From assembly GCA_001929475.1 (NCBI GenBank), contig LXFE01000935.1, positions 1 through 37,896 of the forward strand: DNA of 37,896 nucleotides, in the 5' to 3' direction. Shown here in pieces: positions 19,468 to 32,222 of the stretch. Made by a program: the position numbers and the translations under genes. The notes beneath the pieces are model-generated. The model was given only the letters and a program-made list of their open reading frames with translations. It ran no database searches and had not been told where the DNA came from. The stretch comes from Neolecta irregularis DAH-3 (lineage: Eukaryota). The number at the start of each line of letters is the position of its first letter. The stretch's first letter is position 1.

Positions 19468-20799
19468 ATGGCTGTGGGATTCAATAAACCATGGTCGTCA
19501 ATTCTCCCGTCTTTGTCAGTGTTCTTGGTTTGGTTTTGTATCATATCATCCACAACTTCATCGTCATCTCGAGATGAAACCGTAAAGTCATTCTATTCCT
19601 CTAGCGACCATACCAACAACTGGGCCGTCCTCGTATCAACGTCTCGGTTCTGGTTCAATTACAGAGTTTATTCCTCTTGTCTCTGTTAAAGCTTACCAAG
19701 AAGCATATGTCGAACGTGCTTGGGATGTATAGAACCGTCAGACGTCTGGGAATCCCGGATTCTCAGATCATTTTGATGTTGGCAGACGACGTAGCTTGTA
19801 ACTCAAGGAATACTTTTCCCGGGACTGCTTTCAATAACGCAGATCGAGCATTAGATTTATACGGAGATAGTATTGAAGTCGATTACCGCGGTTACGAAGT
19901 CACAGTGGAAAATTTCATTCGTCTTCTGACGGGTATTTACAATCAAGAGTATGGCTGAGAGATAAAGGTCGTGTAGAGCCGGATACACCAAGATCGAAGC
20001 GTCTACTCACCGATGATAGATCCAACATATTCGTTTACATGACAGGACATGGCGGAGACGAGTTTCTGAAATTCCAAGATGCCGAAGAGATTAGTGCATT
20101 CGACCTAGCAGATGCATTCGAGCAAATGTGGGAGAAGAAGCGGTACCTTTTTATTTTGTTGATGCCACTGAATAAGTTAGATATCATGAAATACTATTCA
20201 TGATCGATACATGCCAGGCAAATACCATGTACTCCAAATTCTACTCTCCAAACATTCTGGCATCGGGCTCCTCGGAAATAAAGGAATCGTCATATTCAGT
20301 ACAATTATCCCCTTTTGAATCTAATTGTTAGCACCACGCAGACAGTGATATCGGAGTTGCGGTGATAGATCGATATACTTATTACACTCTCGACTTCCTT
20401 GAACGCAACGTGGATGTAAATTCCCAGTTAACAATGAAAGATCTCTTTGATTCCTATGACAAAGAATTGATTCACTCCACGCCTGGTTTTCGCACCGACT
20501 TATTCAAAAGGCCAATAGAAGATGTCAAGATTACTGATTTCTTTGGAAGTGTTCAGAATGTAGAAGTTAGCAAAGAAGAGACGATGTTTGATTTTCACGG
20601 TACTGATGTTCTATCACCGAGAGAAACCATAAAGGTTGAAAGACCGCCCGTTGAGGATGACCATATGTCCAGAAAGGTAGCTATATCTCATCCATTCTCA
20701 GTACAAATCCAAGGAAATGCATGGAAGAACTTCAAAGGCGTAATCGCTGTTGGAATGTTATCATTAGGTGTTTTGTTGGTTTCCAAAGTTTCAAGCTAG
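19468..20799 (+). CDS. GPI8: GPI transamidase catalytic subunit (PIG-K, peptidase C13), 4 introns
   Basis: [27 protein letters not shown] (catalytic His) and MIDTCQA (catalytic Cys); N-terminal signal and C-terminal TM helix. Alternative start at 19450. Confidence 0.97.
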
Positions 20800-24382: not shown

Positions 24383-25544
24383 TTATTTCCACCGAGCAAT
24401 TTTCGCCTCCTTGTATATCTCCTCCAAAACCTTCTTGCACCGTTCTATTTGCTCAAAATGCTCTTCTATAGTCCTGCCCTTGAGAGGAAGGTACTTGAGA
24501 GATTGCCGTTCGACCGCTTTCACATCTTGGGCTAGGCTCGTTATGGTATCTATGCTCGCCTTGGAATGAGTCATATGGTATATGCTGGGAAATGTCAGTA
24601 GATATTAGATGCCAGACCTTACTTGTCTAGAACTTCTTGCAGCTCGGCCTTTAGAGCCTGTGTGCGCTGTGCAGCAGTCATGCTAGCCAATTGTGTTTTC
24701 GGCTAGTAGTATTGGCTAGATACTGAAAGCAGATTGCATACCTGAGGTGATTCTCGTTCGAATGGGAGGCGGTATGAATGCCGCAGAATCGTGCTAGGAC
24801 CCAAATAACCGTTACTTCTGGTTGACTGTCTACGATTGTGCATTTGTAAAGGACTCTGTGTATACTCAGGCTCTCTTCCAGACCTTATTGAGGGAACGGT
24901 GTTGCTTCTTGGTAAAGACGGTACATGCGCCGGAAATTTTGACTGAGCTCTTGCCAACTGACCTTGGAAGCGAATATTCTCCTCCATTGATTCCGTAGCA
25001 ACATTCTCCCATCTTTCAACTCGCAGATTGAGCTCGGACAGCACATTTTTGTACTCTGCACGTTCTTTCTGGATGTTTTCGACTTGTTCTCTTAGACGCT
25101 CCTCGTAAGATTCAAACATGGTTTGCCATTGTTTATCTTTCAGTTTATGTTGCTTCTCATAATAACCCAACCGCTCAAGGAGCATATTTACGGCCACCAA
25201 ATCTGTTCTAGATAGCTAGTATACATTAGCTGTGTGCAACAAGACGTTGTATGGTTCAACACCTTGTTCAGCGAGTGGGAAACTAGATTCTTGATTTGCG
25301 TCCCATCAGGAAGATTCTCCGAGGTATCTAGATATGTTAATTCGACTTCAAAATGGAATGTACGTCTTAACAATCCGTTCTCACTTACAACTTCGATTAA
25401 TCTCTTTCGTTCGTTCATAAGGTCATTTTCCAGGCTAGTTATTTGATCTTTCAATGAGACAATTTGATCATTCAGGCGGCCGATTTGATCTCTCATATAC
25501 CTTCCTTCTTGAATAGACAGGGAAAGGCTGTTCAAATCGTTCAT
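24383..25544 (-). CDS. Hypothetical coiled-coil protein (~4 introns; start uncertain)
   Basis: Heptad-rich E/K/Q/L ORFs (25188-25589, 24703-25200, 24383-24574) can be joined in frame by 36-47 nt GT-AG introns. Confidence 0.65.
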
Positions 25545-25683
25545 TATCTGCAATTTGTTGTGAAGGCTGGGGTGTTTGGATGAAACCAAACGGAGGTTCG
25601 AAGAAACAACATTACACCATTTCCCAACCGTTAATAACTAATACTGTGGATCCATTGTTTTTTAAGCATTTAAAGTACTAGAA

Positions 25684-28600
25684 ATGCCTACAGACATCCG
25701 TAATTATTTTGGGAACAAATCATCACCGCCAAAGAGTATACTATCGGGCACGAAAAATGCCAATACTCCAAAAGTCTCAAAGGAGGATTCAAAAACAAAG
25801 AAAGCAAAAAAGAGAATCATTGGTATTCTTTTGTCCGCATGCAGTATCTCATAAGGGTATAGTGTCCGATGATGATGACGAAGCAGATGATGTTCCTAAA
25901 GTGTACGCTACCAATCTTCGAAATATAGCTTAATAGACAGAGAGAGAGGGTTCAGCGATAAATCCCCTTCCAGGTATCTTGTAATTACATTGGTTTGCCT
26001 AAGAAAGCGAGGAAACAAGCAAAAAAAGAATCAGAATTCGAACCTACAGATGTACCCTCTTATTTCGCCTCATCCAATAAAGTCAATCGGACCGCTCCCT
26101 TGAAAAAGGCAATACCCAAGCTTCCAAAGAAGCCCAAAATTGTGGATGAAGACCATTTTATTGTTCCTGATGATTTCGATGACGATATGTCCATTGACAA
26201 CGATATTGCAACGAAAGATGAACAGGTTGCTACAACTAAATCAAATTCCAGAAAACGCAAAGCCACTGAATCGCCAGTTATTGACTTGGACAATGAGGAA
26301 AAAGCTGTTCAACCAAAAAGCGTTGCGAAGAAAACCTCCCCGAAGAAGTCCACCTCTCGTGTGAAGAAACCTCGAGTTTCTAACGAACAACATGATGATG
26401 ATCCTGATTCTGCGAAAATTAAGGCTATTCTCGATGATATCCCGACAGTTCAAGCTCCCCCACCTCCGGATTCAAAAGAATAGGTGTCACTGTGGAAATC
26501 AAGCTGATGGTCAAGGGTTTCAATTATCGCGATTTTGCCTCAAGGGGTGGACCTGCTGCTCAAGGTTCAAAGGAAATTCCTGTCGGTGCTGAAAATTGTC
26601 TTTCTGTATGAAGTCTTCCTCTATTTCGCTTACGTTAGGGGCTAAGTTTCGTCTTGACCGGTGTGCTGGAAACTATCGCACGGGATGATGCTTCTGATCT
26701 GATTAAACGTCATGGAGGGTACAAAGAACGTCGCTGAAATTCATGTTAACAAATCCAGAAAAGTGATGTCTGCACCATCGAGTAAAACAGATTTTGTCGT
26801 TCTTGGTTCCGAAGCAGGTCCGAAGAAACTCGAGACAATAGCCAAACATTGCCTTCGCACAATTGACGAAGATGGTCTTTTCCAACTTATTGGACGCCTA
26901 CCTGCGAATGGTGGCTCTGGAAAACAAGCCCAATTAGCGGCTGCAAAACGAGAAGCAGAAGACAAGAAAGCGAAAGAAATGGCGGAGGAGATGAAACCAA
27001 AAACGGATGCTGCAAAGATATTGGCTAAAAGTCAGCTGTGGACAGACAAATATGCACCGAGTAGTTTGAAAGATATCTGTGGGAACAAAGGCTTGGTTGA
27101 GAAGCTACAAAGATGGCTTCGGGATTGGTAAGTTTTATCGTCAACAAGGGCTTATAACCGCAGGCCAAAATATATCAATGCGAATTTCAAAAAGCCTGGT
27201 CCCGATGGGTCTGGTCTATATCGTGCTGTTTTGGTTAGCGGTCCACCGGGAATTGGAAAGACTACTGCTTGCCATCTTGTTGCCAAACTTGAAGGCTATG
27301 ATATTTTGGAATTCAATGCCAGTGATACTCGAAGCAAGAGGCTTATGGATGTCAGTTGAGATTTTCGTATTTGTACTGATCGTGCAGGAACAACTGCGGG
27401 GAGTTACTGATAACACTTCGTTGAATGGATACTTTGCTGCTGATGCACGGTGTTTTATCTCACCCAGCTACTAATTCTACAGGGTAAAAAAGTTGATCCG
27501 ACCAAACTAAAACTCGTAATCATTATGGATGAAGTAGATGGTATGTCTGGAGGAGACCGCGGTGGTGTCGGGCAGTTGAATGTTGTGATTAAACATACTA
27601 AGGTACGAGTTTCATTGGCAGAGCTTATTTGTAGATTCCCGTCATTTGCATTTGCAATGACAGAAAGCATCAGAAGTTGAAGCCTTTAGATAGGACTACC
27701 TTGGATATACCATTTAAACGACCGACTGCACAAGACATGAGATCCCGGCTAATGTCGATCGCCTACAGGGAACAGCTCAAGCTTGAACCTCAAGCAATTG
27801 ATCAACTCGTCGCTGGTACACATAACGATATCCGCCAAATCATCAATCTTTTATCAACTTATCGATTGAGCAATTCATCAATGACTATGGATCAAGGGAA
27901 AGTAACGTAGGTCTCAATCTTCTCATAAACTACTAATAAAAGATCACGAAATGCTCAAAAACACATCATTTTAAAGCCTTGGGACATTGTTGGCAAATTT
28001 CTTAGTGGTGGTATTTTTCATTCAACCAACAAAATCACATTGAATGAGAAAATCGAACTTTATTTTAATGACCATGAGTTTTCCTATCTTATGGTCCAGG
28101 AGAACTATCTCAAAACAAATCCAGATCTGGCTCGGAGAGTCACTGGTCCTCCCAAAGAAGTCAATATGAAGAAGCTTGAGCTCGCTGAAAAAGCTGCTGA
28201 ATCTATTTCGGACGCAGATCTAGTGGATGCAATGATCCATGGGTGACGCCGACAAATACAGGATACGAACTGATCCTTAGGCCTCAGCAGCATTGGTCGC
28301 TTATGCCTGTTCATGGAGTATTTTCTTGCGTTCGGCCTTGTTCATTTGTCCATGGGGCGGGTGTTGGTGGACAATATTCCTTTACAAGCTGGCTAGGAAA
28401 TAATTCGAAGCAAGGCAAGACAATGAGACTTTTGCGCGAGATTCAATCTCATATGCGGCTAAAGACATCTGGTGACAAAAACGAAATTCGGCAATCATAC
28501 CTTCCACTCTTGTTTAATCGACTTTCCTGCCCATTGATTGACGAGGGTGTAGAAGCTGTGCCAGATATTATCGAGACTATGGATGAATATTTCTTGACAA

Positions 28601-29018
28601 AAGAAGATTGGGACTCGATTATGGAATTGGGCATTGGCCTACAAAGCGGGGAACAAGTTTTGAAGCGAATAAGCACTGCCACGAAGTCTGCTTTTACAAG
28701 AAAGTCCGTCCCAGAAATACCAACTGCTGATGAAATAGATATAATCAAGCTAACCATCCAATTCCCTTCATGAAAGCTAGCACAGTCATGCCAACCAAAG
28801 CTGGGGCCATCCGTGATGTTCCCGACCTGGAAGATGCAGTCGAAGCCAGCGATGTCGACGCTATATTAGTAGATGAGAACCTTGATGACAACGACGATGA
28901 TGATATCTCAAAAGACAAAATGGTCAAATCTAAAGCCTTGAAGCCGAGAAAGACTGCTTCTGCCAAGGCTACCACTAAAAAGTCAAAGGCCAAGGCGAAG
29001 GCAAATAGTGTCAAGTAA
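25684..29018 (+). CDS. RFC1: Replication factor C large subunit (13 introns)
   Basis: [10 protein letters not shown] start; BRCT domain ([17 protein letters not shown]); LWTDKYAP; Walker [31 protein letters not shown]1 C-terminal domain with WLGNNSK. Confidence 0.97.
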
Positions 29019-29195
29019 TGGGAGATAATTTTGTGTACTATAAACGATCTTGCATTCTTAAGGAATTTGCCCCGAATCTATACCGCAGAATATCATGGTT
29101 TTTTTTGGTTCAAGTATCGTCTGTTTAGATTCGATTGTCACATTTGTTTCGGTTAAGCTTAAAACCTGCTTTGTACCAAAAGGAAATTTGTTCAA

Positions 29196-30673
29196 CTATA
29201 ACTTCCATCCATGAGTCTTTGCCAACGCAATCTGCTGTCTGACAGCCAACTCCGTGAGTATTTCTTCACTACCTGCACCAACAACCATCACTCTCAAGTC
29301 ACGACTGATCTGCTCTACTCGAGCACCCTTGCCCCCTCTAGAGAATCCCTGTCCTCCGAAAACCTGTTGAGCTTCACGACAAGCGAATTCCAAGTTTCGA
29401 CCAGCTTGAACCTTGACTAGTGCGATTTGTCCAGCAAGGATTTTGTCGATAGTCTCTTTTGTGTTCATTTTAATGCTATAACCCAACTGTTCGATCCAAG
29501 CATGGGTTGATTCTATATGACGGGCTATGTTTCCGAATTTTTCTCGAATAACAGGCTGTTCAAGCAATGGTTTTCCAAAGGTATTACGTTCAGAGGCTGT
29601 ATAATTAACGAGGCCGAAAGCAAGACAAAGAACCATAATTAATAGCATCTTCAAGACAGACCCTCGCCATTCGATTTGCGGTAACAGCCATGAGTAGCCG
29701 TTCATGGTTGAAATCTACATTAGAAAATATAAAAGAGGAGGACATACTACTCATAATAATAGTAAAACCATCATTCTCTTTTCCCAGGAGATATCGAGCA
29801 GGAACTTTGACATCGTCAAAGTTGATGTAAGTGCTTCCACTGGCAGCTACTCCAGAATTATACATCTTTCTCATCCGGACCCCAGGGAGGTTTAATGGAA
29901 TAACCAAGGCGGAGATTCCTCGTCTTCCAGGGCCGCCCGTTCGAACAGCAGTTGTAGCATAATCAGAGAATATGGCATTTGTAATCCATTTTTTGGCTCC
30001 ATTAACAATGTAGTGGTCACCTTTTCGAATGGCAGTAGTTAAGAGGCCTGCAACGTCTGATCCGGCATCTGGCTCTGTTACCGCGAGACATATCTTTTTA
30101 TCTCCTTTGAGAATTGGGTATATAAGCTCATCTTTTATTGATTGAGAACCATAATTTATGACTGGTGGAAGTCCTGGATAATTAGGCAATCATAGAAACG
30201 GCTTTAAAAACCGATAGATCCGCCCATTCCAAACGCCCACATCACTCCCAAGTATCCAATTCGAGACATTTCATCAGCGCAAATGATGTCATGGAATGGA
30301 TCCCAATCTATTCCAATGAGCTGTTATTTTGTTGATAACATCAGCACCTTTTGGCTCGACATTTCCAGGAAGTTTGATGCTGCCGAGATACTGGTGAGGC
30401 ATTGGCCAGATTGAACAAGGAACTACGCCCCTTGCCGCATGACGCTTATAGACCTGATGATAAATAAACACAAGATGCAAAAAACAGTAGTACATCGTCC
30501 GGCAGTTTTCCCGCCATCTCCCATTCTTCGACGTGGGGTCGGAGTTCCTCATCGACATATTTACGCAAAACATTTCGAAGGCGGATATGAGACTCGCTAT
30601 AGTAGGGGCTTTGGCCGGAGTACCAGGCTGGATCTGCCCATGGAGTGGATTCGCCAAAGATCTGACTAGCCAT
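29196..30673 (-). CDS. Acyl-CoA dehydrogenase family protein (5 introns)
   Basis: PWADPAWY..SPYY; ICLAVTEPDAGSDVAG; YIVNGAKKWITN; FNHERL; RNTFGKPLLEQPVIR; AQQVFGGQG; VGAGSEEIL. Confidence 0.95.
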
Positions 30674-30797
30674 TTGTTGAAGTTAGTGCGGGGGAAAGAG
30701 GAGCTAACCATGTCCGAGTCACGCGGGACCTCCTTCTGATTGGACAATTTGGTCTTGGTTCGCGCTAAAACGAAAACCATTTGACTGGGAATGGGAG

Positions 30798-30935
30798 TGT
30801 AAGAACTAATTTTCTTACCAGACACGTGGTAGATGTTATCGGATTGGCAGGTATATAAACTAGTAGGCTTACGCGTACCTAACTGTAGGGACTCAATAGT
30901 ACCCTATTGTAAGAACTAATGTTCTTACCAGACAC
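30798..30935. repeat. Two 28-bp direct repeats 110 bp apart, each with a dyad core
   Basis: TGTAAGAACTAAT(T/G)TTCTTACCAGACAC at 30798 and 30908. Confidence 0.85.
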
Positions 30936-32222
30936 ATGAGTTGTCAATTACTTAGGTTAGGTATGCCTGTAAATATGACGTACAATCACTTCGGTTAGAA
31001 TATACCGGGTCTTATTCGTACTTTGGCGATCACTTACAGAGTGATTAATTCAGAATAATCAAAGACACGGCGACTTAGCGGGAGGATCTTATCTACACCA
31101 GCTGGAATAAAAGCTAGTGTGATCCTGAGCTATGAAGACGTGCCTACTGGTCTCTGATGATCAATATGACGTATTGCATTCTGAAATGTAACATCGGCAA
31201 GACCATCTGACTTTCTACGTTGTCCTGTCTGGCGACCGATCCGTGAATTTCGTCTTATGACTCAGCTGTTGCTGAGATAAATGTCAAACCTATCCAACAG
31301 TGTCCCAGAGCGGTTTCAATTCTAGCTCAAAGCAATAATTCAAACATCAATGGTCTCTATCTTCCCTACTGACGCCGCCCATAATATATCAACTCTCTAT
31401 TCCGCAGAGAAAGCAGGAGATTATGTGATTCAACAATTGGTCAAATCATTTATGCCGGGGACTACAAGGGATATCTCAAGGGTCACTTTTAGAGAGTCGG
31501 AGAAGGACCACATTCACCCCTATACTTCTCCGTCAAAAGTGATGGGAATCACGATAAAGGATGGGTCAAGGGAAGAAATGATGTCTTCAACTTTGGCGAA
31601 TTGATATGGGGAGGAACTCAAAAGATCGCTGCAATCAATTTGACAAGGAGGGGATGTGAATAACAATTTTCACTGGTTCAATTCAAAAAGGTCACAGAGA
31701 AAATGATTAAATATACCATGCTGGATAACACCATCCTTGCGTTGTGAATGGTGAAGATACTTTTGGAAGAGATGTATACTTATACGCAAATCGTACAGCA
31801 TTATCCGAATGGCCATCAATTTATTCTTTGAAATGAATGGCCGGTGTGAACATTGATAATCGTACCGATAACAGTGAACCCGGTATCGGAAACAATGAAC
31901 GGCATTACCGTTGCAGTCAGCAGCGTAGCAGCACTGAAGCCCTTGGACGAGTTTCATTATCCACTGAATACTCTATCTTTACCAGATCCCTGTGTAGAGA
32001 TGAAATTTCTATCGAGATAACATTTCGAGGGTTTGCACAGCTTACAGAGGATGAAGAGATTCTTTAAAGTAGTATTCAGAGAGAAATGCAATATGGATTA
32101 CAAATCGTTGTTATTCCTGGTTCACACGGCGGTGACGGTGGTGAACAATTTTTTTCGATCGTCTTCCACCTTTTACCGTTTGTATTTTCTTCCACCTTTA
32201 CAACATTCTTCTAGAAGCCAGT

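Follow-up and report, generated by a model that had tools for sequence, protein, structure and literature searches.

The window analysed here, a stretch of 37,896 nucleotides from Neolecta irregularis DAH-3 (GenBank assembly GCA_001929475.1, contig LXFE01000935.1), carries on its forward strand the N. irregularis gene for the large subunit of replication factor C, RFC1. Exon 26763–27128 is 100% identical to an N. irregularis protein labelled replication factor C subunit 1 (P0003), and the product matches the Pfam BRCT, AAA, and RFC1 families. RFC1 is an essential gene, and the locus is single-copy, as judged by the one copy of this DNA found in the genome. Among the 13 introns defined by the joints of a spliced contig (run X2, below), 11 are GT-AG, one is GC-AG, and one is non-canonical at both ends. 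The introns of RFC1 and of a neighboring gene are very short (32–40 nt), and their donors are degenerate (e.g. GTGACG, GTCCGT, and GTTTTT). On the minus strand, positions 24703–25637 contain coiled-coil-like frames that are divergent from RFC1, start within ∼50 bases of it, and have Pfam matches below the cut-off only. On the other side, a convergent acyl-CoA dehydrogenase gene follows; the X2 contig connects the last RFC1 exon to this gene with no break (28739–29596), which suggests overlapping 3′ ends, although a contig does not prove a single transcript. A repeated element lies upstream of the acyl-CoA dehydrogenase gene (30800–31050), where the depth of run X1 reaches up to 3137, with many loose ends and an internal direct repeat. 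The features of the RFC1 locus are collected in Table 1.

Table 1. Features of the RFC1 locus, in positions of the window
Feature	Position	Strand	Remarks
RFC1 coding span	25684–29018	+	14 exons; 952 residues after splicing; stop TAA; from identity, joints, and open frame
RFC1 exon 4	26012–26479	+	ends ...AAAAGA, phase 2; holds a conserved, proline-rich linker missing from the deposited model
68-nt GT-AG intron of the deposited model (P0003)	26448–26515	+	unsupported by the X2 contig and by homologues
RFC1 intron 4	26480–26514	+	35 nt, AT...AA; equivalent placement 26479–26513 (AA...CA); contains TAG; from the X2 joint
5′ splice site ATAGGT	26480–26485	+	U2-type, A for G at +1; A+3, G+5, T+6; best of 7 donors; probable placement
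TAG	26481–26483	+	spliced out of the observed mRNA; would be a premature stop only on intron retention or use of GT 26484
Overlapping canonical GT-AG intron	26484–26515	+	32 nt; donor GTGTCA lacks G+5, score −1.69; differs from the contig form; would leave the stop
Branch site CTGAT	26504–26508	+	branch A at 26507, 7 nt before the intron end; 6–9 nt in neighboring introns with a match
3′ splice site CAA	26512–26514	+	one base before the AG at 26514–26515
RFC1 exon 5	26515–26605	+	leads into the BRCT domain
RFC1 GC-AG intron	27445–27482	+	donor GCACGG; mis-drawn in the deposited model; joint in the X2 contig

Intron 4 came to attention because of a stop codon. The original prediction, made from the letters of the window, held that RFC1 needs either a 38-nt GA-AG intron or decoding of an in-frame UAG. 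The letters that it quoted are all present (TAG at 26481–26483, GT at 26484, GA at 26478, GT at 26448, CTGAT at 26504–26508, AG at 26514–26515, and the codons for GFNYRDF). Our frame check agrees that the canonical 32-nt GT-AG intron keeps the frame but leaves the in-frame TAG and thus cannot give RFC1, and that the 38-nt GA-AG intron (26478–26515) and the 68-nt GT intron both preserve the frame. TAG is a normal stop here, as had been stated; it ends a GPI8-like gene at 20797–20799.

Two sequencing runs, X1 and X2, contain the stretch, neither of them recorded as RNA, and we compared both with the window over positions 25600–31200 at the level of contigs. The DNA run X1 gives one unspliced contig (depth 445.6) that covers 25600–31022 and has two differences from the window (30680 and 30708), none of them at the site. 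The TAG and the GA are therefore real in this DNA, with the reservation that X1 is possibly the source of the assembly and thus not an independent confirmation. Run X2 gives a 4760-nt contig (depth 95) that skips all 13 RFC1 introns as well as those of the convergent acyl-CoA dehydrogenase gene. Because this contig is spliced, we read X2 as RNA-derived (cDNA-like), the label of the run (“DNA?”) being a guess. At intron 4 the contig joins 26478 to 26514 and skips 35 nt (not 32, 38, or 68), with one letter that fits on either side. The length agrees with this: the 171 letters between the flanking pieces of the X2 record correspond to the two exons of 92 and 79 nt, which gives a 35-nt skip. So does the depth, as the bin depth of 77.2 equals 95 × (187 − 35)/187, whereas the depths expected for skips of 32, 38, and 68 nt are 78.7, 75.7, and 60.5, respectively. 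The other 12 RFC1 junctions of the contig are exact and have GT/GC-AG ends, and for the five introns of the neighboring gene the piece lengths fit GT-AG solutions.

The 35 nt are thus absent from the spliced transcript, the frame is restored, and the UAG is not in the mRNA. The X2 joints give an open frame of 952 residues that differs from the deposited protein at the linker and at the GC-AG intron, where the deposited protein reads ARF and the spliced contig gives GKKV. In 4760 nt, X2 departs from the window by a single base, a T>A at 27701 that exchanges Leu for Met; A>G changes are absent. This difference, together with those of X1 at 30680 and 30708, shows that at least two haplotypes are present in the material, and the RNA source may differ from the window inside intron 4. 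The 35-nt form comes from one contig of one run in one study, and contigs drop minor forms and give no levels.

The original prediction was right that something non-canonical happens at this site, but wrong in its choice between a GA-AG intron and UAG decoding, as a 35-nt skip fits neither 38 nor 32 nt; its list of solutions was incomplete. The 38-nt GA-AG intron is not what X2 has spliced out, the codon that readthrough would decode is missing from the spliced contig, and editing of UAG to UGG has no matching A>G, either at 26482 or at any other position of the contig. An AAG-to-TAG base error is contradicted by the X1 contig, which matches the window bases at the site, and use of the GT donor at 26448, which would have spoken against the whole proposal, is not seen either, the X2 joint skipping 35 and not 68 nt. 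As main forms, the GA-AG intron, readthrough, UAG editing, base error, and the 68- and 56-nt GT introns are rejected on the X1 and X2 contigs and on homologue scores. We also discarded a single-base frameshift error, with the intron then being coding sequence (X1 bases and X2 skip), back-to-back recursive splicing of 36 + 32 nt (a total of 68 nt, which the X2 contig does not have), and a stwintron or other recursive intron, as a net skip of 35 nt is too short for two introns where the neighbors have 32–40 nt each.

Comparison with homologues bears on the long models. The distance from the IP motif to the aromatic residue is 13–19 residues in 98 of the 105 homologue segments with a BRCT start motif (from 119 proteins); it is 13 residues in the 35-nt model, inside this range, and 2 residues in the deposited 68-nt model, which deletes a conserved piece as originally predicted. 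Profile scores are 48.0 bits for the 68-nt and 51.1 bits for the 56-nt model, compared with 72.5–73.4 bits for the 26-, 32-, 35-, and 38-nt models (73.0 for 32 nt, 72.9 for 38 nt, and 72.5 for 35 nt). As the short models score almost equally, homology rejects the long introns and is not able to choose among the short ones. Metagenome RFC1 loci read through the site without an intron in 68 of 80 cases, the other 12 not covering it; these are the best 80 of 514 loci, a set biased to intron-poor loci and holding no close Neolecta relative.

The letter that fits on either side of the X2 joint leaves two equivalent placements (Table 1). We prefer AT...AA over AA...CA because it would keep U+2, A+3, G+5, U+6, and the A at −2. 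The donor ATAGGT then equals GTAGGT with a G1A change. Scored over positions +3 to +6 with a small matrix built from 17 neighboring introns, the AT at 26480 reaches 1.46, compared with −0.7 for the AA at 26479, −0.93 for the GA, −1.69 for the GT at 26484, and −2.09 for the GT at 26448. When exon positions −3 to −1 are included, the same 17-intron matrix gives 1.64 for the AA placement versus 0.6 for AT. G+5 is present in 9 of the 17 neighboring introns and absent at GT 26484. The CAA at the 3′ end fits at positions −3 and −2, whereas joining the AT donor to the AG at 26514–26515 would make a 36-nt intron and hence a frame shift. Intron 4 has a U2-type donor from +2 to +6 and a CTRAY branch site at the usual distance, and neither the donor (ATAGGTG) nor the branch (CTGAT) is an RTATCCT donor or a U12 branch site. 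Judged by these motifs its signals are U2-type, although ends other than GT/GC...AG keep it out of the canonical U2-type class. A strict internal pattern is fitted by intron 4, by none of 17 canonical neighbors, and by 318 GT-AG sites genome-wide. The intron appears to combine strong inner signals with weak ends, as would be expected of a tolerated exception. Of 200 shuffled sequences, 195 fold better than the region (z = +1.84), which has no stable fold and no hairpin around the ends, and the junction microhomology is 1 nt; this poor fold and short microhomology disfavor an Ire1-type cut or template switching.

The spliceosome of N. irregularis looks ordinary in the parts that we could locate. 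U1 snRNA has the usual 5′ end (in a match below the family cut-off), U6 contains the ACAGAGA box, and U5 has the usual loop. The Prp8 α-finger matches that of human except for one Trp-to-Tyr exchange and keeps the residues equivalent to yeast Gln-1594 and Arg-1604, but it lies on a small contig for which contamination is possible. A changed spliceosome is thus unsupported for these components, which appear standard in sequence. Two more partial matches to the Prp8 U6-binding domain (L086 and L087; G000:C4303 and C2568), one with a stop, may be fragments, pseudogenes, or contaminant DNA. The U6 gene itself (L003 269–417, minus strand, G000:C1963) has an apparent spliceosomal intron just after the ACAGAGA region (GTAAGT...CTGAC...TTTAG); a U6 intron exists in Schizosaccharomyces pombe. 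U6atac and U12 were not found in genome searches run without a positive control. Minor introns and minor snRNAs are described as absent or nearly so in Ascomycota (PMC10639083, PMC11347168), and minor introns as absent from Dikarya (PMC10639083).

We therefore consider it highly probable that RFC1 intron 4 is a 35-nt AT-AA intron (26480–26514) removed by the major, U2-type spliceosome. U1 and U6 would recognize ATAGGT through positions +2 to +6, aided by the strong branch site, and the major spliceosome would branch at A26507 from the A+1 donor. As A+1 pairs poorly with a terminal G, the second step may then skip the AG and dock at the CAA one base upstream, so that an A-A terminal pair would replace G-G; by chance, this choice preserves the reading frame. 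The overlapping GT-AG intron, which lacks G+5, would yield a nonsense mRNA; it may assist U1 recruitment and may see some low-level use, which, like a released 5′ exon, would not show in contigs. In the canonical arrangement the first and last G of the intron pair with each other, as do the A at −2 and the branch A, and an AU...AC combination can be tolerated (10.1101/212811). An A-A pair weakly supports splicing in mammalian tests (PMC8283771, citing Scadden and Smith 1995), in yeast the G-G pair is described as replaceable exclusively by A-C (PMC8283771), and G1A inhibits or blocks splicing in the S. pombe intron(s) covered by PMC4299874. Given the yeast A-C-only rule and the G1A effect in S. 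pombe, efficient A-A splicing is unexpected.

Several other readings were weighed against a spliceosomal AT-AA intron. The RNA could derive from another haplotype with a canonical intron, having G at both ends of the 35 nt or three bases fewer before the GT at 26484, the window allele being a variant or defective one. Differences between haplotypes do exist (27701 in X2; 30680 and 30708 in X1), and the runs carry different sample and organism codes. Only one difference occurs in the whole X2 contig, however, window and deep X1 agree at the site, and the window allele would still need a non-canonical route while carrying the signals for exactly the junction observed; we regard this reading as unlikely. 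Still less probable in our view is that the same 35 nt leave by another chemistry: as AA...CA (26479–26513), as TA...AG (26481–26515) with a silent A>G at 26480, or through an Ire1- or tRNA-type cut. The AA...CA form gives an identical mRNA and the better exon-side score, but does without U+2, G+5, and an A at −2; the TA...AG form requires an extra edit; and a non-spliceosomal cut has no hairpin at the ends to act on, where a spliceosomal branch signal and a length typical of the neighboring introns (32–40 nt) are present.

Three further readings seem to us very improbable indeed. A-to-I editing of both terminal adenosines would turn AT...AA into the equivalent of GT...AG and give the same junction. 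Fungal A-to-I editing prefers U at −1, which both terminal adenosines lack, and the X2 contig contains no A>G, with 921 A and 121 TA sites available in the coding sequence, although partial editing is hidden in contigs. Editing of a single end has been reported for AT-AG and GT-AA sites in human (PMC4176328), and our search of the accessible literature on A-to-I editing in Neolecta turned up work on Agaricomycetes only. That one of the originally proposed solutions (the 38-nt GA-AG intron, the 68-nt intron, or the 32-nt intron with readthrough of the UAG or its editing to UGG) is the working form gains from the 32- and 38-nt forms matching homologues as well as the 35-nt form, and from minor forms being invisible in contigs, but the retained contig shows 35 nt, A26482 is unchanged, and the 68-nt form scores ∼24 bits lower. 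An artefact of reverse transcription or contig assembly, conceivable with a single contig and contig-level data, is hard to reconcile with 1-nt microhomology, 12 other exact junctions, an in-frame product that matches homologues, and a single-copy locus.

We searched the genome for more introns with A at +1. With the strict pattern, AT...YAA has 96 matches and TT...YAA 49, where 1.21 is the ratio expected from 120,629 bases. The excess has a p value of 0.045 after collapsing repeats by hand (0.0035 before), and this slight surplus of AT over TT is confounded by repeats and by true GT introns that start four bases on. Two dispersed repeat families on small contigs (e.g. L170, L178, and L180; L096, L109, and L114) dominate the matches, accounting by eye for ∼29 of 72 AT...YAC and ∼11 of 96 AT...YAA cases. 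Leaving out 13 repeat copies, we examined 82 of the 95 other AT...YAA matches; 27 were flanked on each side by at least 20 open codons, and on inspection AT-AA ends were required by none. From the 72 AT...YAC matches, 50 were examined (22 repeat copies left out), 15 of them in detail, and none needed odd ends. A second AT-AA or AT-AC intron was thus not seen among 132 candidates, in a search of low power whose strict pattern fits 0 of 17 ordinary introns. Candidates that end in AA followed by G can be separated by RNA only, since they always overlap an in-frame GT-AG intron.

Intron 4 resembles several known systems. Parker and Siliciano (1993), Chanfreau (1994), and Scadden and Smith (1995) reportedly performed G1A suppressor experiments in yeast and mammalian systems (as cited in PMC8283771, PMC1557818, and 10.1101/212811); as proposed here, the first and last intron bases co-vary and A+1 redirects the choice of the 3′ site, but those pairs are engineered and A-A is described as weak among them, whereas in RFC1 A-A is the retained form in an essential gene. 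U2-type AT-AC II introns occur in SCN4A, SCN5A, and TAF2 and have been proposed in xylanase genes of filamentous fungi (PMC1557818). They share with intron 4 a U2-type donor whose A+1 is compensated by a non-G last base; in intron 4 this last base is A rather than C and is picked beside an available AG. The nearest ACs are at 26490 and 26552, so that intron 4 is not an AT-AC II member. U12-type AT-AA introns are found in RASGRP4, MSH3, and others, AT-AA being listed only among U12-type introns in PMC1557818, and AT-AA is the commonest non-canonical pair of minor-intron ends in animals and plants (PMC10639083). Their terminal dinucleotides are identical to those of intron 4, which in contrast has neither an ATATCC donor nor a U12 branch.

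In Aspergillus telomerase RNA, the major spliceosome uses an AUA(A/C)GU donor, the second step is blocked, and the 5′ exon is released (PMC4299874). This too is a natural A+1 donor handled by the major spliceosome of an ascomycete, but in RFC1 the exons are joined and the protein depends on their joining. GA-AG introns, known from FGFR genes, Eurytemora, and Oikopleura (PMC7072748), likewise combine a non-canonical donor with a canonical GT close by (in the FGFR case); intron 4 is not GA-AG, and its nearby GT lies 4 nt downstream. In fungi, 0.019% of introns are given as AT-AC and 0.257% as other pairs (PMC7072748), and in 13 of the 130 rows of File S2 of that paper, counted by eye, annotated AT-AA introns number one in Agaricus and one in Armillaria, the level of other odd pairs. 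AT-AA is not mentioned in the text of PMC4176328, and within the literature searched, which mostly leaves out subscription journals, we found no report of a fungal U2-type AT-AA intron or of Neolecta splice sites. As far as its motifs tell, intron 4 operates in the manner of U2-type AT-AC II introns or of G1A suppressor pairs and belongs to none of the AT-AC II, U12-type AT-AA, or GA-AG classes.

Taken together, the non-canonical intron 4 of RFC1 is real and of a rare kind, other than the one originally proposed. More tentatively, and with doubts that we think outweigh our confidence, it could be a naturally occurring, constitutive AT-AA intron that an unmodified major spliceosome removes from the transcript of an essential gene, in a lineage that lacks the minor spliceosome; its A-A pair would then override both an adjacent AG and an overlapping GT-AG intron. 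It possibly arose from a 35-nt GT-AG intron through two G-to-A changes or from a nonsense change to TAG that created a new donor; in the latter case, a TAG at the old exon end possibly made the new donor and moved both splice sites as a rescue. If this rescue took place, it left a competing, stop-bearing isoform that could set the level of RFC1.

Intron 4 appears to be a single case rather than the sign of a changed splicing system, which limits its weight. The deposited RFC1 model is corrected in two places, and introns of this kind are invisible to annotation that admits GT-AG only. Most tests of how the first and last intron bases pair have used engineered mutants, in which A-A performs weakly and the second step usually stalls on A+1; a 35-nt AT-AA intron from nature, in an essential gene, would be a ready substrate for testing the pairing rule in S. 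pombe, a relative. If our reading is true, more such introns could hide in fungal annotations, as each ATANGT...AA/G site is overlapped by a GT-AG intron that is in frame and shorter by 3 nt.
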